DNA of 58,217 nucleotides, from positions 1 to 58,217 of the IMG/VR virus record IMGVR_UViG_3300029825_000010, one strand, 5' to 3'. This document shows, one piece after another, positions 6,567 to 50,503 of the stretch; the first letter of the stretch is position 1; each line of letters begins with the position of its first letter. The notes under the pieces are model-generated. The model searched no databases. It was not told the origin of the DNA and saw only the letters and a program-made list of their open reading frames with translations. This DNA comes from a virus (Duplodnaviria > Caudoviricetes). The position numbers were made by a program, and so were the translations under genes.

Positions 6567-8132
6567 ATGGAATTGAAAAATCTTACTATTGATGCAAAGG
6601 ATGCTCTCAATCTTATTAGCATTTTGCAAAAGAGCTTTGAACGTGGCGTTGCATCCGCTAATGAGGGTAATGCGCCAAAATTTAGTCCGCTGGCCGCTTA
6701 TTTGCTGTCTAAACATGCGGGCTACGAAATTGTAGATTCCGATGGTGTTCCTGTCGAGAAAAGTGAGGTTGACGAAACAACTCTTGACTTTACTCGTGGC
6801 AGAAGCCTGAGCGAAAAAGATGCAGAAATAGCAATACGCTATATCTATGACAAAAGCCCCTATCTCAAGTTGTTCAATACCCGTATCGTAAAAAGCCTAG
6901 TTACGGATGTCAAGGGCACTGCAATTACCAGCAAGAACTTGATTTCTAATGAGCAGAAAGGTGGTGCTGTTACTACCATTAACAGGCGTATTGTGCACAA
7001 TTTTGGAATCAATATGTGGCTCAAGAATGCTCAGTTGCAAAAGGATATTCCGCTTCAGACTGTTATTGACAACCTGCATAACCCTAACTTTGAGAATGAA
7101 GTTCTTAATGATGTGGCTATTGCTTTGGGTAATGATATTCTGAATCTTGCCATCAATGGCTTGGGCGGAAATTATGCCAGCACTGAAGATTTCTATGACC
7201 TTAATCTTGGTTTCAATAAGATGTTGCAAACAGCAGATGGTTCTAACACCAATACATATGGAACAATCAAAGTTCATGGCTTCTTGGGTCGTTATCTGAC
7301 TCCCCATAAGGTTGATGCAACCAGTGCAACTGGTTCTAATTATACTGGCGCAAATCTTATTGCTGTTATGCGCAAAGTATATGAAGCTATGCCTGCCGAG
7401 TTCAGAAGCGATACTGGAAATGTGTTTATGATGGCTCAGAAGGATGTTGACTTGTATATTGCGTCTCGTTCTGACATCACAAATCCGTCCAACCCTGTCA
7501 AGGAAGATATCCTGACCACCGGCAACGTTCCTCGTTTTATGGGCTATGCGCTGGTGGCAATCCCTGGCTGGCTGAGTATCAATGAAACTCACGAAAAAGA
7601 TGCAACGCTGTATGGCTCTATTCTGTTTGGCAACCCGAAGAATCTTGATGTTGCGTCCAATAGCACAAACTATCGCAAAGATATGTTCTACAACGCTCGT
7701 GCTACTACTGGTGCCGCATTTGAATATACCTATGATATGTATCTGGACTTCCAAGCTGCACGTCACAATAGCTTCGTAATTGCATTCAAGGGCGCAAAGG
7801 TCTCTGACCCTGTTCTGTTGTCTGCTGACGATGCAAAAAATGGCATGAACGCCTATACTCCCTCTGCAGCCAACACGTATGCTGAAACAGTTGCGAGCGG
7901 AACCCCTCTTCATGTATGTTGCCCGAATGAAGGTGCTGTTGTAGTAAGTTCAACTGAAGACCTCTCCGGGGCATCTTTTGATACTCTGGCCGAAGCTCTT
8001 GCTGCTGAGAATGCTGCTATTATTCCTGAAAATGGTCACTTCTCTCTTACTGCAAGCGACCACATTTATTTGAGGGCTTACCACCCCAACATGATTGCTT
8101 CTGATTGCATTGATTGTAATATTACAATTTAA
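6567..8132 (+). CDS. major capsid protein (HK97 fold) with C-terminal Fn3-associated/Ig-like extension
   Basis: position after protease; ALGNDILNLAING, FGNPKNL motifs; extra ~110 aa beta-rich C-terminus. Confidence 0.85.
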   Translation: MELKNLTIDAKDALNLISILQKSFERGVASANEGNAPKFSPLAAYLLSKHAGYEIVDSDGVPVEKSEVDETTLDFTRGRSLSEKDAEIAIRYIYDKSPYLKLFNTRIVKSLVTDVKGTAITSKNLISNEQKGGAVTTINRRIVHNFGINMWLKNAQLQKDIPLQTVIDNLHNPNFENEVLNDVAIALGNDILNLAINGLGGNYASTEDFYDLNLGFNKMLQTADGSNTNTYGTIKVHGFLGRYLTPHKVDATSATGSNYTGANLIAVMRKVYEAMPAEFRSDTGNVFMMAQKDVDLYIASRSDITNPSNPVKEDILTTGNVPRFMGYALVAIPGWLSINETHEKDATLYGSILFGNPKNLDVASNSTNYRKDMFYNARATTGAAFEYTYDMYLDFQAARHNSFVIAFKGAKVSDPVLLSADDAKNGMNAYTPSAANTYAETVASGTPLHVCCPNEGAVVVSSTEDLSGASFDTLAEALAAENAAIIPENGHFSLTASDHIYLRAYHPNMIASDCIDCNITI

Positions 8133-38944: not shown

Positions 38945-39733
38945 TTAGCTAATAAATAAATCACGTTGAAACTCCTTTAACTTTTTAAGTCTTTCGTGTT
39001 CTTTCTTATGGCATGATTTACACAGCGTAATACCGTTTGATATTTCATATCTCAGCGATATGTCAACACTCCAGGGTATTACATGATGAGCATTCAATCT
39101 CACGCCTATTGCTCCACATGCTCTGCAAGTGTAATTATCTCTTGTAAAGACACTGCGCCTCCAATTTTTATATTCAGGCAAACTTCTCTTTAGTCCATTG
39201 CGTATAGCTCTTTCTTCATCTGTCATTTCTGTATTCCACTGCTGATGATTATCTCCTCTGTTGAATACATGCCAGCATTTCATTGAACAAAATCTTCCAT
39301 GTCCGCGTATAATTTGATGAGGTTTTGCATAAAATGACTTATGGCAGACAAGACAATTTCTTGAAGTCTTTGTTGTAAATCCCGTGTCCCTACACGCAGC
39401 AGAACAATATTTGCTGCTATCAGAATAGGAATAAAATGACTTCCCGCATGTTTTGCAAAACTTTTCAATTTTATGGTTTCGATTGCTATTATAGCACGCG
39501 GACGAACAATACCTAATATTATAATTCCTGTTTGCTTCAGATGCTTTTCTATAATATGTCGCCCCACACACAGAGCACACATATTCAGCTCCATTTCTTT
39601 TACTTTTATCTGCACATTCTTTTGAACAGTATTTATTTCTTCCACATGCAATTTCGCTAGGACTACGATGAAACCTATTTCCGCAAATCAAGCACACGCA
39701 ATTATTATCTTTTACTTTTGACATTTTGTCCAA
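38945..39733 (-). CDS. HNH endonuclease with four N-terminal CxxC...YCS..C zinc-ribbon repeats
   Basis: WRRSVFTRDNYTCRACG...LNAHHV...NGITLCKSCH. Confidence 0.88.
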   Translation of the reverse strand: MDKMSKVKDNNCVCLICGNRFHRSPSEIACGRNKYCSKECADKSKRNGAEYVCSVCGATYYRKASEANRNYNIRYCSSACYNSNRNHKIEKFCKTCGKSFYSYSDSSKYCSAACRDTGFTTKTSRNCLVCHKSFYAKPHQIIRGHGRFCSMKCWHVFNRGDNHQQWNTEMTDEERAIRNGLKRSLPEYKNWRRSVFTRDNYTCRACGAIGVRLNAHHVIPWSVDISLRYEISNGITLCKSCHKKEHERLKKLKEFQRDLFIS

Positions 39734-43517: not shown

Positions 43518-44063
43518 TCATTCGACAACAATCACGCCAAGCATCTCGTCTTCAGTTTCTTGATGAACTTCTGTGATTCCTGCCTGTCGTTCTGCTATCA
43601 TTTTAGACTTTATTTTCTCGTAGAGCGTCATTCCATCTTGGCGAGGTATCGCTACAGTATTAATTGATGTATTCAATATTCCTGACCAGAACTTGTCTGT
43701 AATTGAGTATGCAAGAACCTCAATAATTGTCTCGATATTTTCACCACTTCTCATCAACCTCCTAATTTGATTACGTGCGGCATCGGGTTTTGCTTTTATT
43801 GCTATTATCTGGCTCGTATTTACGCCTGTTTTAAGCTTTTCATCGGTAAACCAATCAATAACCAGCTTTGATATTATCATCTTATCTTTTTCTACGCAAT
43901 AACCTGAAAGGCTTTCCATCAGTGTAGATATTGATTCTCTGAAGTCCGTGCCAACATTATTGTCATGCTCGATTACCAACATATGGCGTCCCAAAGCGCC
44001 GGCAGCAACGGACAAGATTCTGTATGGAACGCCATCAATAATTAGTCGTGTGCCCTCTTTCAT
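43518..44063 (-). CDS. protein resembling the C-terminal domain of phage replication initiators
   Basis: IRRLM...IIEVL.Y...DKFWSGIL motif; directly upstream of dnaB. Confidence 0.45.
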   Translation of the reverse strand: MKEGTRLIIDGVPYRILSVAAGALGRHMLVIEHDNNVGTDFRESISTLMESLSGYCVEKDKMIISKLVIDWFTDEKLKTGVNTSQIIAIKAKPDAARNQIRRLMRSGENIETIIEVLAYSITDKFWSGILNTSINTVAIPRQDGMTLYEKIKSKMIAERQAGITEVHQETEDEMLGVIVVE

Positions 44064-45187
44064 TATTTTAACTCTCTTGGCAATGATTTGTAGAAATTAC
44101 AGAATTTGTTAACTGGGCAATACGATTCACATCTTGTTGATTTGGCAGGCCTTTTAATTATGCTAAACAAGCTCAATGCCTTCTGGTGCGAAGCATAGGG
44201 GTCTTTGCCTTTGTGTATTTCTTTCTCAGCTATTTTCTGTGCTTCCGCATCCATCCAAGATTTTGCCGCAGCATAAGAATACTCAACTTTGCTGGCCTTA
44301 ATGTTACCACGCTTCATGACAGCATAAGTATCGTGACCTTGCCACCTGTATTTGGCAGAACAAACCGGGATTGCATCGTCCATAACCATTTTGTATTTAT
44401 CAAACTCGGCAACCTTTTGTTCAATTATTTGCTCCACAATATCAAGACCAAGTAATGGTATTTCTATTGTCTCTATTGGGTCTGGATAATTGCGCTCACG
44501 TTTTGAATTGGTTTTTGAGTAATCACGCATAAGTAGGTTTATGTATAGTTTCTTGACTGGATACCCCTCATTCTCTAAGAAGAGTCTATACATATTTAGC
44601 TGGAGAGTCCAGTCCTCCATTGTTGAGTTGCCGGGCTGATTTCTGTATATCCATTTGTAAATGGAGCTAAACTTATAATCATGCAGGGATTGTTCTTCTG
44701 TGTCATATAAGTCAAAACCACCAGCCACAACCTTGCCTGTTTTTGTGACATACTTAAATCGTTTCTCAATTAGGTATCTCTCCTCGGGCAAGAGTGAAAG
44801 CAAATAGCCAAGACGTTGACCGGCTCCGACGTCACCATCTCCAATTATAAAGCTCATAAAGGCGGCTTCAATCTCGCCAGGGTTTTTGCTAACTTCACCG
44901 TTATGCACTTTCTCAAAGAAGGCTCGGACGCGGCTGAGAACAGTAAACTCCACATCGTGTTCGTTGGCTCGTTCAAGGATGGCATGCATCGCCGAGCCCA
45001 TGAGCATGTATAGTTTTTCGGAAACGTCCTCATCAATTTCGTGTTTATGTCGATTGAATAGGTGAAATGCTTTTGGCTCTTGCAGTAATTGTGTTACCGA
45101 ATAATCTCTCTTTTCTCCGGAGCCACTATACCAGTCTTTTTGCGCGGCTCGAACGATAGCTTCATTTAGGTGTTTGTCATTTCTCAT
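44063..45187 (-). CDS. Cas4-like PD-(D/E)xK exonuclease
   Basis: GSAMH..LE, GGFDLYD, DYK, QLNMY, C-terminal C...C.YCP...C. Confidence 0.8.
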   Translation of the reverse strand: MRNDKHLNEAIVRAAQKDWYSGSGEKRDYSVTQLLQEPKAFHLFNRHKHEIDEDVSEKLYMLMGSAMHAILERANEHDVEFTVLSRVRAFFEKVHNGEVSKNPGEIEAAFMSFIIGDGDVGAGQRLGYLLSLLPEERYLIEKRFKYVTKTGKVVAGGFDLYDTEEQSLHDYKFSSIYKWIYRNQPGNSTMEDWTLQLNMYRLFLENEGYPVKKLYINLLMRDYSKTNSKRERNYPDPIETIEIPLLGLDIVEQIIEQKVAEFDKYKMVMDDAIPVCSAKYRWQGHDTYAVMKRGNIKASKVEYSYAAAKSWMDAEAQKIAEKEIHKGKDPYASHQKALSLFSIIKRPAKSTRCESYCPVNKFCNFYKSLPRELK

Positions 45188-46544: not shown

Positions 46545-46627
46545 AGATTCTCCTTTCGCTCGGTGAGCGGGACAGGGAGAGGAAAATAAAAACACCTGCC
46601 CCGCACCGAGTTATACATTAGATTAGA

Positions 46628-47488
46628 TTAGATTAGGTCTGAGTCTTGAGCTTGCTCTGAATTAGTATCAAAGCTTGCCTCAAATAAGTTGTGGTCGAAG
46701 CTCAAGCCAACTTTTTTCAGGTTTTTCTTAAGCAGTCTGATGCGCAAATCATCCCACGCCTTGCCTGAAAGCTGAATAGCCTTATGGTCTTTACTCATGA
46801 TTTTATCAAGAGCTTCTTGCACGGCCTTTGGCTCTTCTATATTATCATCAAGCATTTCTGCAAAGGACTTTTCCGTTTCAGGATGGTAAAACAGCACAAA
46901 ATCAAACACGGGCTGTGTTTCTTTCTCGTAATTTGGCATCCAGATTGTGGTGGCTTGAGACTTAGCATTCTCATATCCAACCGGGTCAGATTGCCTGCTC
47001 GGAATTGGGTTGCCGGTATAGCCATTGATGCCATAGCTGTCTGGGTATTTCTGGTAGAAGTTGAGGACTATGCCGACCTGCTTTCCAATCAAATCAACAT
47101 AGCTCGGGACTTCAATCTCACGTTCCACAAACTGTCCGTCAACAAATTCACCGTCTTTAATTCTTGTGGTTCCGATGGTGTCTCTTGCGCCGGTTATGCC
47201 AAATAGTGTTCTGAGTTTGCTGGCATAAAAGCCCTCGTCGCCATTTGCAGCACGGATATGTTTTGCGTCCTGACGATATACCTTACCGTTTGGCATCTGG
47301 AAGGCGAGGGTAATGAACACAGAACCATTCTTAGATTGGGATAAGGATGCCTGAGTAACTGTTACTACATATTTGCCAGAAACCCCACCAGACGGTGCAT
47401 CTGCCTTAGCAGCTGAATCGATATTTTCTTGGGAAGTCATGTCCATGCTCGGAAGGTTGCGGAAGTCGTTGATGTTGTTATTAGTCAT
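46628..47488 (-). CDS. putative single-stranded DNA-binding protein (DUF669-like OB fold)
   Basis: GKYVVTVTQA...SKNG...ITLAF, DLIGKQV; acidic C-terminal tail; adjacent to AAA ATPase. Confidence 0.55.
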   Translation of the reverse strand: MTNNNINDFRNLPSMDMTSQENIDSAAKADAPSGGVSGKYVVTVTQASLSQSKNGSVFITLAFQMPNGKVYRQDAKHIRAANGDEGFYASKLRTLFGITGARDTIGTTRIKDGEFVDGQFVEREIEVPSYVDLIGKQVGIVLNFYQKYPDSYGINGYTGNPIPSRQSDPVGYENAKSQATTIWMPNYEKETQPVFDFVLFYHPETEKSFAEMLDDNIEEPKAVQEALDKIMSKDHKAIQLSGKAWDDLRIRLLKKNLKKVGLSFDHNLFEASFDTNSEQAQDSDLI

Positions 47489-47509
47489 TTTGTTCTCCTT
47501 TTTTTATTG

Positions 47510-47782
47510 TTATCTTAGTATGGTTTTTTGGGTTTTGGTCGTTGTATTGACGCCATCAACACGATAAGAAATCATGTATGGCACATCAAACTTTGAATCG
47601 ATGGAACGAATCCAGTCACGGCACTCTTTCTCTGAATTCATCATATCAGCTTCAATCTCTCCTGTGGTGGTGTTTGTTACATAATACACACGATTGTGCC
47701 AGTTCTTGGTCTTGACTTGTTTAGGGTCTGGCATGATTACATCTTGGTCTTGAATCTCGATTTTGTCTTGTTCTTCGTACAT
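47510..47782 (-). CDS. hypothetical protein
   Basis: AAGGAG RBS. Confidence 0.55.
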   Translation of the reverse strand: MYEEQDKIEIQDQDVIMPDPKQVKTKNWHNRVYYVTNTTTGEIEADMMNSEKECRDWIRSIDSKFDVPYMISYRVDGVNTTTKTQKTILR

Positions 47783-47839
47783 TTCTACTCCTTAGTAATT
47801 ATTTTTGGGGTTAAGTGTTTCACTTTCTTTTTTATGACC

Positions 47840-48592
47840 TTAAGAATCCTCGAATAGATATTTTACACTTGTTGATTTTCCGCTCCCGCTCTTGCCACAG
47901 ACCAGAATTGGTGAGGGCATAAAGTCGGGGTTATTTTCCATATCATAGTAATTGTAAATAGCACCAAGCACCAGAGACATATCATTCTGAATATATCTCT
48001 CTGCAAACATGCCATCGGGCGATTTGGCGGTATTTCTGCCATCTGTATTTGTGCAGAATTGATAAGCCTCTGCGCCTTGTTTGAGTGGATTGAAGCGTGT
48101 ATGCAAAACAATGGTAAAGAAAGACTCTATCTTTCCTTCCAGCTTCTTGCCATCAACCTTGACGACTATTCTGTCAATCGAATCGCTGTCACGGACAATT
48201 TCATCAAGAGCGGTGAATACAATGAACCTGCCTTTGGATTGCCAAGTCATTAGCAACTGCTCGAGAATATCAGAATACTCCCGCCAGTAATCATAGCCTG
48301 TGATTTTGTTTTGTTTCAGGAAATCTGATAACAGGTATAGTATTCTGGTGAAAGAGTCAACGACCACAATCTTGATTGGATTGTAATAGTCTGCCTTATC
48401 CTGCTCATTGGCTTTGAAGTCAAGCAGTCCTGAGCCTGCCCTCATTACCGCTTCAAATTGCTTCCACGAGGATATTGTCTTAATCTTACATCTCGCTGCC
48501 TGTCGAAATGGCAGGGTTTTGCGCTCGGTGTCAATGAACAATATCTCGTCCAGGGGCGCAGTTATCTTTTTGCTTTCGGGATGGTATTTCGT
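47840..48592 (-). CDS. Sak4/AAA_24-like ATPase, circularly permuted; apparent ACG start at 48592
   Basis: FIDTERKTLPF, VVVDS, TAKSP.GMF, QND; ILVCGKSGSGKS at the extreme C-terminus; AAGGAGG before ACG. Confidence 0.75.
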   Translation of the reverse strand, partial: TKYHPESKKITAPLDEILFIDTERKTLPFRQAARCKIKTISSWKQFEAVMRAGSGLLDFKANEQDKADYYNPIKIVVVDSFTRILYLLSDFLKQNKITGYDYWREYSDILEQLLMTWQSKGRFIVFTALDEIVRDSDSIDRIVVKVDGKKLEGKIESFFTIVLHTRFNPLKQGAEAYQFCTNTDGRNTAKSPDGMFAERYIQNDMSLVLGAIYNYYDMENNPDFMPSPILVCGKSGSGKSTSVKYLFEDS

Positions 48593-49191
48593 AAAGCCTC
48601 CTTTTTGTTTTGAATTATAGCTTGTTTGAGAACATACATCATATCGCCAAAGCCGGTTGATACTCCCTTCTCATAATACAGGAAAGACTCGTTGCCATTC
48701 TGTATTGTTATAGTTTCGATGTCGTTAAAGCCTCGTGCCACAATCGTTAATGTATCGCCAATTTTAGCATTGACCACATCAAATAAATAGTTCTCCATTG
48801 CCACCGTGATTTCATTAACCGAAATCCATTCAAAGGTTAAATTTTGATAGAATTCCAGCATGGCAAACTTTAGACCGCTGTGATTGATGGCGTTTCTGTA
48901 ATCCTCTGGACAGAAGTGCCTGAATCCTCTAAACATGAAGTGCTCCATGTTGGTTTTCGTTAGGAACTCTTCCTTCGTGGCTTTGCTGATACCGAAAAGT
49001 TTGAGTATGTTTTCATAGATTGGCTTGCTCTTATTTTTTATGCAGAACAAAGCCATTTCATAAAAAAACGACGTTTGATTTGCAACAGTAAGGTTAATTG
49101 ATTCCTCTATCATCGCATTCCACTCGTCGTCATTAATGCCGGATGGACGTCTAACTAAAGAATCCATCTGGTTATGCCTTAGTAACGACAT
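48562..49191 (-). CDS. hypothetical protein
   Basis: GGAGG RBS; ORF. Confidence 0.6.
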   Translation of the reverse strand: MSLLRHNQMDSLVRRPSGINDDEWNAMIEESINLTVANQTSFFYEMALFCIKNKSKPIYENILKLFGISKATKEEFLTKTNMEHFMFRGFRHFCPEDYRNAINHSGLKFAMLEFYQNLTFEWISVNEITVAMENYLFDVVNAKIGDTLTIVARGFNDIETITIQNGNESFLYYEKGVSTGFGDMMYVLKQAIIQNKKEALRNTIPKAKR

Positions 49192-49192
49192 T

Positions 49193-49924
49193 TTACCTCC
49201 TTTTATACCTTACATCAAATATAGTTGCTTGGAGATTCATCTTTTTTGAGTATTGAAGATGAGTTTTTTTATGACATTCTTCGCATAGAGTTATACCATT
49301 TGAGGGCTCAAATCTAAGTCCCTCATCAACGCTAAAGGGAATGATGTGGTGTGCGTTCAGTTTTCCTCCTTTTTTGTGACATTTCTGACAGATATAATTA
49401 TCGCGTGCGAATATAGAATTTCTCCAATCTTTCATTTTACCACAATTCCTATCACGCATAAATGATTCTCTGTCTGGATTTATTTGTGATTTACTATAAC
49501 ATTCTTGACTACAATACCTTTTTCCATATAAATCATAGTGTTTTTTTCTTATCCTAATTACTTTTCCGCAAAACTCACAGTTTATTTCAACGTGTTCTGA
49601 TTTTTCATTACCGCTTTGTGCTATTGACCTACATTTTACGGAACAATAAAGACGATTGTTTAGTGACGGTTTTAAGTATTGTATCTTTCCGCAAACAAGA
49701 CATGTTACCATTTTTTTGCCATACTTTTTTCGGCACTCATCAGAACAAAATACCTTTCCAGTATATGATTTTATTGGTTTTTGACATTCCTTACAGAAAG
49801 ATTCTTTTGTTTTGTGAGATAATAGGTAACATTCTCTACTACAGAATTTAGAATCGCCTCTTAATATTCTTGATTTATATGCACTGAATTGCTTACCACA
49901 CGCCTTACATATAACTGTAGTCAT
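49193..49924 (-). CDS. HNH endonuclease with zinc-ribbon repeats, paralog of 38945 gene
   Basis: four CxxC..CS..C repeats; WRNSIFARDNYICQKC...LNAHHI...NGITLCEECH. Confidence 0.88.
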   Translation of the reverse strand: MTTVICKACGKQFSAYKSRILRGDSKFCSRECYLLSHKTKESFCKECQKPIKSYTGKVFCSDECRKKYGKKMVTCLVCGKIQYLKPSLNNRLYCSVKCRSIAQSGNEKSEHVEINCEFCGKVIRIRKKHYDLYGKRYCSQECYSKSQINPDRESFMRDRNCGKMKDWRNSIFARDNYICQKCHKKGGKLNAHHIIPFSVDEGLRFEPSNGITLCEECHKKTHLQYSKKMNLQATIFDVRYKRR

Positions 49925-49990
49925 CTATTTTACCTTCTTTTTTCTATTATCTATGCTGCCAAAATACGATATGCTATAATCCTGTCAAGG

Positions 49991-50503
49991 TTAATCTTCA
50001 TCATCATACGGTTTTCTTGGGGACGGTAAAGTGTTGTCGTTCATGGCTTTATCTATTGACACAAGCTGGTCAATAAACAGTCTGCACTCCAGCTCACAAA
50101 ACTCATGGGTCTGTGTGGTTTCATCATCATCAACGTGAGCGGTATCAAATCCCATTGCCCACTCAAAGATTGGGGCTGATTCGCCAAGAGGCATGAGCCT
50201 GTCACCGAAAGTCAGACTACCATGCACATCAAAAAACATCTCTGCGGGCAGTGGGAGTTTCTCTTGATTTAAGGCATATCCAAGGATTGCCATCTGGCCG
50301 CGCTTGCCAGAATAACCCTCCAGAACTCTTTTATTGTATGGCTCAAGTTCCGGAATTGGTTCACAATATGACTTACCAAATAAGTAATGCCCTCTTGGTA
50401 TTTCAACATATCCACAGACATGATGGTATCCAAATAGCATTTTGATTGTTATGTAGCGGTATCCCTTGTATTCCTTTATTTCGCTCTTTTCCATGTTGCT
50501 CAT
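49991..50503 (-). CDS. hypothetical protein with a phage-type motif set
   Basis: CGYV..P..H, VHGSLTF, GFDTAH..D. Confidence 0.65.
   Translation of the reverse strand: MSNMEKSEIKEYKGYRYITIKMLFGYHHVCGYVEIPRGHYLFGKSYCEPIPELEPYNKRVLEGYSGKRGQMAILGYALNQEKLPLPAEMFFDVHGSLTFGDRLMPLGESAPIFEWAMGFDTAHVDDDETTQTHEFCELECRLFIDQLVSIDKAMNDNTLPSPRKPYDDED

Follow-up and report, generated by a model that had tools for sequence, protein, structure and literature searches.

A probably functional, circularly permuted Sak4/AAA_24 ATPase in uncultured phages

Can the RecA-like core of a phage Sak4 recombinase be opened at a new place and its old ends joined, so that the nucleotide-binding unit is made last? The question is raised by a gene in the 58,217-nucleotide sequence of a virus of the Caudoviricetes (Duplodnaviria; IMG/VR record IMGVR_UViG_3300029825_000010, positions 1 to 58,217), referred to below as the window. 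The gene, here termed cpSak4, encodes the body of a Sak4/AAA_24 ATPase with the P-loop at the C-terminus. The first-pass annotation had described it as a clean circular permutation of this family, and the swapped and conserved order of segments, a break point shared among relatives, purifying selection, a confident predicted fold and a conserved gene context bear this out. We consider it very likely that cpSak4 is a naturally circularly permuted Sak4/AAA_24 ATPase, made as a single chain, that arose once, is kept by selection and performs ATP-dependent annealing with a neighbouring protein resembling single-stranded DNA-binding proteins (SSB). The permuted protein is a real variant and is probably working.

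The cpSak4 frame contains no stop from 48640 to 47843; it is a single uninterrupted frame in which no internal start is needed. It has 250 codons if read from the ACG at 48592 and 233 if read from the TTG at 48541. Residue numbers of the motifs (E23, D79, K190, K239) follow the 250-residue reading, and positions of Pfam and PHROG matches follow the 233-residue open reading frame (ORF). Translation of the minus strand from 48592 to 47843 gives ..PLDEILFIDTERKTLPF.., IVVVDS, ..TAKSPDGMF..IQND..IYNYY, then DMENNPDFMPSPILVCGKSGSGKSTSVKYLFEDS and the stop; the segments quoted earlier, the Walker B strand and the P-loop position 47873-47896 are thereby found to be exact. The gene has the following parts.

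48592..47840, minus strand: cpSak4 gene (circularly permuted Sak4/AAA_24 RecA-core ATPase), with the stop codon TAA at 47842..47840
48592..48557, minus strand: N-terminal extension TKYHPESKKITA, a predicted beta-hairpin (E2-4, E9-12)
48544..48524, minus strand: strand 2, ILFIDTE, residues 17-23, preceded by PLDE; Glu23 is invariant in 41/41 aligned sequences
48370..48353, minus strand: Walker B strand IVVVDS; D79 and S80 are invariant
48031..48017, minus strand: TAKSP motif of the AAA_24 subfamily of cpSak4; K190 is invariant
47947..47909, minus strand: 13-residue linker YDMENNPDFMPSP between the helix that was ancestrally C-terminal and the strand that was ancestrally N-terminal
47908..47897, minus strand: relocated strand 1, ILVC, within the DSSP strand E229-233 of the model
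47896..47873, minus strand: relocated Walker A/P-loop GKSGSGKS, residues 233-240 of 250; G233, S235, G238, K239 and S240 are invariant
47872..47840, minus strand: relocated helix 1 (TSVKYL), a short variable tail FEDS and the stop codon

Conservation was scored in an alignment, A1, of the window protein and 40 full-length look-alikes (41 sequences), from which a permuted-family profile was also made. Fragments and frameshifted calls (P0006, P0017, P0020, P0022, P0027, P0031, P0041, P0046) and P0035, a near-copy of P0034, were excluded. All 41 sequences share, besides the invariant residues listed above, which include the Walker A lysine and serine (K239, S240), the Walker B aspartate and the strand-2 glutamate, the residue S242; the Walker A residues K234 and G236 are present in at least 90% of them. 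Glu23 would be the catalytic glutamate of RecA-like ATPases, and in unpermuted relatives its strand comes straight after helix 1. The segment MSLVLGAIYNY of cpSak4 is the helix that ends ordinary members of the family. The N-terminal extension TKYHPESKKITA is found neither in unpermuted relatives nor in some permuted ones, and its first 10 codons overlap the end of the upstream gene orf209.

Pfam AAA_24 (PF13479) matches residues 2-166 of the ORF with positions 27-186 of its 195 (32.5 bits against a cut-off of 27, E 9.5e-8). Since the match begins at profile position 27, the N-terminus of cpSak4 lacks the 26 initial positions that contain the P-loop. Generic P-loop families match residues 205-231, all under their cut-offs. 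Two PHROG families of Sak4-like single-stranded DNA (ssDNA) annealing proteins were matched, phrog_2872 (residues 2-204 to profile positions 29-216 of 219, E 2.7e-30) and phrog_124 (E 2.3e-20). No match was found in NCBIfam, and a sequence search of the PDB returned generic P-loop matches only. Look-alike clusters in the ESM Atlas are labelled 'AAA family ATPase' and are 100% viral. The protein has the RecA-like core without extra domains that marks the family. It does not have the canonical order, in which strand 1, Walker A and helix 1 come first, directly before the glutamate strand, and it was therefore assigned to a permuted subfamily rather than to the ordinary Sak4/AAA_24 members. Its identity to unpermuted relatives is 24-36% (34-36% for P0051-P0054).

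The segment order of relatives was compared using the permuted-family profile, a hidden Markov model. Among 263 fetched relatives, 186 match it in two abutting pieces in swapped order, the outcome that the first-pass annotation had proposed as a test. In the unpermuted P0052, for example, profile positions 223-244 correspond to residues 2-23 and positions 12-217 to residues 23-214. Another 63 of the 263 match in one piece that reaches the profile end, and the remaining 14 are fragments or are without a clear P-loop piece. The motif G.{4}GK[ST] lies near the C-terminus in 46 of the 49 best clusters (36-94% identity, full coverage), the other three being truncated or frameshifted; in the next 71 clusters it lies inside the first 86 residues in 67. 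A profile search of the whole library yielded 1670 proteins at E <= 1e-3. Among the 150 of these matches listed, 143 were new: 17 permuted, 114 unpermuted, 11 without a motif match and one unclear. The expectation that homologs do not routinely have the swapped order thus holds for the family, which is mostly unpermuted, but the order is not unique to the window contig, at least 63 homologs in one clade sharing it. Such a clade within a mostly unpermuted family supports a real, selected permutation.

The break point is shared as well. In unpermuted proteins the glutamate of strand 2 stands 17 residues past GK[ST] in 70 of 78 scorable cases. In permuted proteins the chain ends a median of 10 residues past GK[ST] (range 6-38, n=59), and the glutamate (53 scored) is at position 12-15 in 15, 21-25 in 34, 30-31 in three and 6 in one. 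From these spacings, the chain is opened in the loop that joins helix 1 to strand 2. The break directly after KYL, as first proposed, falls within the 17-residue stretch from GK[ST] to the glutamate, just past the ..KYL/..RNL helix. The permuted P0047, P0049 and P0124 end ..KRPNILIVG.SGSGKSTSLRN.., many permuted proteins begin ..FKPxEV..I.TE, and the unpermuted P0052 begins MKKPNILIVGKSGSGKSTSLRNL, followed by NPETTAILNTE. These junction sequences match the pattern expected of a tandem duplication, an in-frame fusion and a loss of the outer parts. Three further proteins, P0156 (197 aa; start ..DPENTIIINTE..), P0111 and P0115, begin at the break point and have the P-loop at neither end; truncated gene calls or split genes may account for them, and they could be informative on the origin of the permutation.

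The predicted structure speaks for a relocated unit that takes its old place in the core. AlphaFold2, run on A1 without templates, gave a mean predicted local distance difference test score (pLDDT) of 93.8 and a predicted template modelling score (pTM) of 0.91; pLDDT is 93-94 in the ten-residue blocks covering the P-loop region (221-240). DSSP assigns a strand at E229-233 and then a helix at 241-246, and the strand call means that the relocated strand is hydrogen-bonded into a sheet. The best structural match of the model is Sak4 itself. In a BFVD search the best match was A0A516LUR7 (248 aa; TM 0.71 both ways, 15% identity), which may be a distant permuted relative, and the others had TM 0.35-0.64.

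The same junction is found in other assemblies. In a scan of metagenome contigs the gene recurs, at 71-99% identity, in 16 loci, which stem from several projects and were assembled with several programs. The Logan contig X1 (17.9 kb), which may come from the source sample of the window, spans 47400-49300 with 18 differences; X2 (16.9 kb, a different study) spans 47400-48924, and X5, from a third study, spans 47400-48481. No joints are reported across the junction in these three, all of which are assembled contigs rather than raw reads. The ratio of nonsynonymous to synonymous substitution rates (dN/dS) in the body of the gene is 0.06-0.08 among close alleles. In the relocated strand 1, P-loop and helix 1, synonymous and nonsynonymous changes number 3/0 between the window and L083, 4/0 with L084 and 1/1 with L085; in distant allele pairs synonymous sites are saturated. 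The methionine before strand 1 (..DFMPSP..) is replaced in relatives by T, L, V, Q, I, K, C and others, and this lack of conservation indicates that the C-terminal piece does not form a small gene of its own.

Phylogenetic trees used the core sequence alone, after removal of the relocated segment and the N-terminal extension. Of the 263 proteins, 232 with a scorable core were used together with the window protein, and 31 fragments or unclassifiable rows were dropped. FastTree places all 60 permuted rows on one side of a single branch with support 79. A quick IQ-TREE analysis was made with 35 permuted and 55 unpermuted rows, the latter being the 35 nearest by path and 20 random ones. When permuted rows were constrained together, the tree was 22 log-likelihood units better, with a p value of 0.79 in the approximately unbiased test (p-AU).

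In the two protein collections searched, the permuted proteins make up no fewer than 63 clusters, and the clade consists of uncultured phages sampled from digesters, sludge, fermentations and landfills. A megablast search of 46600-50000 against GenBank phages gave no match. When 50,697 phage records were searched by tblastn with the window protein, P0124 and P0176, the matches listed (the best 40 of 108, 12 of 30 and 12 of 463) were all below 31% identity and extended over the body, leaving out the C-terminal P-loop; P0142 gave no match in the same records. A permuted copy in a named phage was thus not among the matches listed, which is not proof of absence. A scan of IMG/VR found only relatives of at most 31% identity over the whole length, with L015 unpermuted. 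In a genome scan the only close matches were short contigs binned into metagenome-assembled genomes (MAGs), and L103 was unpermuted. Three contigs with the cpSak4 module, L098, L099 and L100, lie inside MAGs labelled Methanolobus sp. and Candidatus Saccharibacteria, and L098 and L099 agree with L084 and L085 in match coordinates. They look like phage contigs swept into bins and so carry little information on the host.

On the minus strand, the gene order around cpSak4 is orf151, orf170, HNH endonuclease, orf209, cpSak4, orf90, SSB-like gene, orf158, HD gene, orf132, exonuclease, orf181 and DnaB-like helicase.

Between orf151 and the HNH endonuclease gene, minus strand: orf170, phrog_2164
49924..49193, minus strand: HNH endonuclease gene, phrog_1271
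47782..47510, minus strand: orf90, small and conserved, flanked by cpSak4 and the SSB-like gene
47488..46628, minus strand: SSB-like gene, 286 aa, phrog_743 (E 8.8e-9), two genes downstream of cpSak4
Between orf158 and orf132, minus strand: HD-domain gene, phrog_5889; Pfam HD, 22.8 bits against 22
45187..44063, minus strand: PD-(D/E)XK exonuclease gene, 374 aa, phrog_2139 (E 7.8e-37); Pfam PDDEXK_1 at 16.6 bits, under the cut-off of 22
Next to orf181, minus strand: DnaB-like helicase gene; DnaB_C, 128.9 bits

The earlier placing of the gene in an exonuclease-SSB-ATPase recombination module agrees with this arrangement, since the SSB-like gene and the exonuclease gene lie downstream and synteny is conserved. 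Related loci keep the gene order from orf209 to the exonuclease within the reach of their flanks, and the SSB-like gene is syntenic in every locus whose downstream flank is long enough. Its SSB assignment comes from PHROG only, Pfam and NCBIfam being without a match; the 286-aa protein is the probable cognate partner of cpSak4. The HNH gene and orf170 (49193-50503) do not stand between orf151 and orf209 in L082, L083, L085, L094, L095 and L097, and this insertion is probably mobile. A second HNH gene of phrog_1271 is present at 38945-39733. In L084 (3460-4101) and L093 (560-1201), a different HNH gene (35% identity) is situated between cpSak4 and orf90. This pattern of presence and absence suggests that free-standing homing endonucleases come and go around cpSak4.

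We propose that the first beta-alpha unit, some 22 residues comprising strand 1, Walker A and helix 1, was moved from the N-terminus to the C-terminus and tied to the old C-terminal helix by the linker of about 13 residues. The chain now starts in the loop ahead of strand 2, with its invariant glutamate, preceded in the window's clade by a hairpin of about 12 residues. The RecA-like core and the ATP site (Walker A, Asp79, Glu23) would be the same as in ordinary Sak4. The most likely route is a tandem duplication, an in-frame fusion and the loss of both outer parts, probably taken once. cpSak4 would be an ATP- and ssDNA-binding protein that works with the SSB-like protein in annealing complementary strands, and the PD-(D/E)XK exonuclease may expose ssDNA for recombination-dependent replication or repair of the phage genome. 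Both termini would lie beside the nucleotide site; we speculate that ATP binding or the contacts between protomers are modulated by the N-terminal hairpin and by the variable C-terminal tails of 6-38 residues.

Several points weigh against this account. The annealase activity is suggested by distant homology, the identity to the characterised HK620 Sak4 being about 26%. The predicted position of strand 1 between the right strands, with the P-loop facing D79 and E23, derives from the pLDDT and pTM values and the DSSP call. With aligners bound to the sequence order, TMq to Sak4 8rc5 is only 0.45; both structure aligners keep that order, so that the relocated unit cannot be placed by them. In the free IQ-TREE analysis, the permuted rows split into 30 and 5 across branches of support 55-84. 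The break point is identical in both groups, and a single origin of the permutation is favoured, not proven. No duplicated or fused intermediate was found in a search among longer proteins, which is weak evidence, and no tandem Sak4 genes or double cores occur in 153 loci; in one of the loci, L134, there are matches in two adjacent ORFs, and it looks like a split or frameshifted copy. Finally, the window cpSak4 has no in-frame ATG or GTG, and a start at the TTG would delete the hairpin and the first residue of strand 2.

One alternative is that cpSak4 is a working permuted ATPase whose role has diverged from Sak4 annealing, for example to that of a loader or accessory of the DnaB-like helicase or a partner of orf209. 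The low identities to the unpermuted relatives and to HK620 Sak4, the permutation-specific N-terminal hairpin and variable C-terminal tails beside the ATP site, and the DnaB-like helicase within the same module would fit such a role, as would orf209, which has no family and is co-conserved upstream, overlapping cpSak4. However, the matches to both Sak4-like PHROG families, Sak4 as the top structural match and the SSB-like and exonuclease neighbours, which are the classical context of Sak4 (PMC5928155, PMC13687109), make a diverged role unlikely. For orf209 itself no family match and no fold match were found, and a complex prediction of orf209 with cpSak4 (score 0.01, mark 0.32) counts neither way.

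A second alternative concerns the window allele, which could be poorly expressed or N-terminally truncated and decaying within a permuted family that is functional. The elements at issue are the following.

49191..48562, minus strand: orf209, conserved upstream of cpSak4 and overlapping its frame with the final ~30 nt
48603..48597, minus strand: Shine-Dalgarno sequence AAGGAGG, 4 nt upstream of the ACG and conserved in relatives
48592..48590, minus strand: probable non-canonical start ACG; relatives have ATG, ATT or GTG there

Position 48592 had been taken as the beginning of the protein, and it is not an ordinary start: the first in-frame ATG, GTG or TTG is the TTG at 48541 (codon 18), which is the first listed start and the one at which ORF callers and the ESM Atlas record begin. 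ACG is a very weak start codon in bacteria, and with the lack of an in-frame ATG or GTG this speaks for decay. The second ATG of relatives is GCG in the window. Against decay, the ACG is common to eight close sequences and L086 (it occurs in the window and eight relatives, L082-L086, L094, L095 and L097). Other variants have ATG (L090, L091 and also P0003), ATT (L087-L089) or GTG (L092) at this position, and a strong Shine-Dalgarno sequence precedes it in all of the L082-L097 variants. In the eight close sequences, 13 of the 19 variable sites upstream of the ACG fall on third codon positions of orf209; in the 33-nt overlap past it, six of seven fall on third positions of cpSak4 and none on those of orf209, small numbers that fit translation of cpSak4 from about the ACG. 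With the dN/dS of 0.06-0.08 for the whole gene, and with L087-L089 carrying ATT at the start in a frame open only two codons upstream, a decaying allele has little to recommend it. We lean slightly towards initiation at the near-cognate ACG; a start only at a downstream ATG or TTG, or recoding from orf209, is possible instead.

Recoding of the N-terminus, by a -1 frameshift from orf209 or by readthrough in L087-L089, was considered and is unlikely. In L087 (~320-335), L088 (~7170-7185) and L089 (~1475-1490), the TGA of orf209 is in the cpSak4 frame, two codons (ACG ATT) before the first lysine, so that readthrough would fuse both proteins. An A-AAA-AAG-like site is not conserved, being AGA-AAG in L084 and L097, which counts against a frameshift. 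The cpSak4 frame opens just six codons upstream of the start position in L084, L086, L094 and L097 and just two in L087-L089, which counts against recoding.

The last alternative, an assembly chimera or a read-through, in-frame remnant of a second, truncated Sak4 gene, could appeal to duplication and truncation as the likely evolutionary origin and to the resemblance of the C-terminal piece to a gene start (M-P-S-P-I-L-V.. in the window), but it is practically dismissed by the recurrence of the junction in independent assemblies, a motif invariant across 36-94% identity, changes in the relocated segment that are synonymous only in two of three close pairs (one synonymous and one nonsynonymous in the third), the unconserved methionine before strand 1 and a model confident along the whole chain.

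The permuted ATPase thus remains the preferred reading, and it can be set beside known systems. In the 'RecA-core-only' recombinases of the Sak4/AAA_24 type (HK620 HkaL, PA73 Sak4 and phage 52A Sak4, PDB 8rc5), strand 1, Walker A and helix 1 come first; in cpSak4 they come last, and there is a new linker and, in the window's clade, a new N-terminal hairpin. The nearest unpermuted relatives are metagenomic AAA_24 proteins of 214-230 aa (P0051, P0052, P0132, P0140) and L015 in IMG/VR. They start with strand 1 and the P-loop, end just past the ..YY helix and have in common with cpSak4 the motifs GKSGSGKS[TS]S.RNL, ..NTE.K.LPF.., TAKSP and NDL..V...YY; L015 also has helicase and SSB-like neighbours, as in the cpSak4 module. 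RecA, RadA/Rad51 and the RAD51 paralogs (XRCC3, RAD51D, DMC1) have extra N- or C-terminal domains and the canonical order, and match cpSak4 less well than Sak4 does.

Circularly permuted GTPases are TRAFAC GTPases, not ASCE/RecA-like ATPases. They are known with the orders G4-G5-G1-G2-G3 (YRG/YlqF-YawG) and G3-G4-G5-G1-G2 (cpRAS) (PMC2430557). They set a precedent for cpSak4, in that a P-loop NTPase domain can be permuted naturally and have its P-loop elsewhere than at the start; unlike cpSak4, they have other break points and another biology (ribosome assembly), and are homologous only at the level of the P-loop fold. HK620 Sak4 is described as an ATP-dependent, ssDNA-binding annealase stimulated by its cognate SSB, and Sak4, present in 23% of 191 phages analysed, as among the commonest phage recombinases (PMC5928155). 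The repair module of phage Phi47 consists of a helicase, a Cas4-like exonuclease, a DUF669 protein and a Sak4-like protein (PMC13687109). The cpSak4 module resembles both the HK620 Sak4/SSB pair and the Phi47 module. Satellite and defence systems are also reported to target Sak4 proteins (PMC11846896).

Among the top matches of full-text searches, which covered the main text of open papers, there was no description of a Sak4 or RecA-like ATPase in permuted form, and we know of no permuted RecA-family protein. PMC5928155 and PMC13687109 do not mention permutation, PMC11846896 contains only 'permutated reactions', and the relevant passages of PMC10853773 and PMC7824862 concern methylases. With cpSak4, a well-known recombinase family gains a new structural variant, set in a module of ordinary function, and nothing changes in the outline of that function.

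A more far-reaching interpretation, which we offer tentatively and consider improbable as a whole, is that the permutation of cpSak4, the first of natural origin in the RecA/Rad51/Sak4 superfamily, is not neutral, with filament assembly coupled to completion of the ATP site and with weak starts limiting the dose. If so, both chain ends would lie beside the ATP site, where protomers meet. The central strand and the P-loop, which are synthesised last and tethered by 13 residues, could domain-swap into the neighbouring protomer or instead be gated by the variable C-terminal tail, and the non-AUG starts ACG and ATT, being weak, would limit the amount of a self-assembling protein.

Profile-based annotation sees a truncated AAA_24 match and labels permuted proteins 'AAA family ATPase', and gene callers place their starts at differing codons. 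The relocated termini are new attachment points for the engineering of recombineering proteins. A clade whose nucleotide-binding unit is the last part to be synthesised offers a natural experiment on the folding of RecA-like P-loop proteins, on the weight of chain order and on permutation via duplication.
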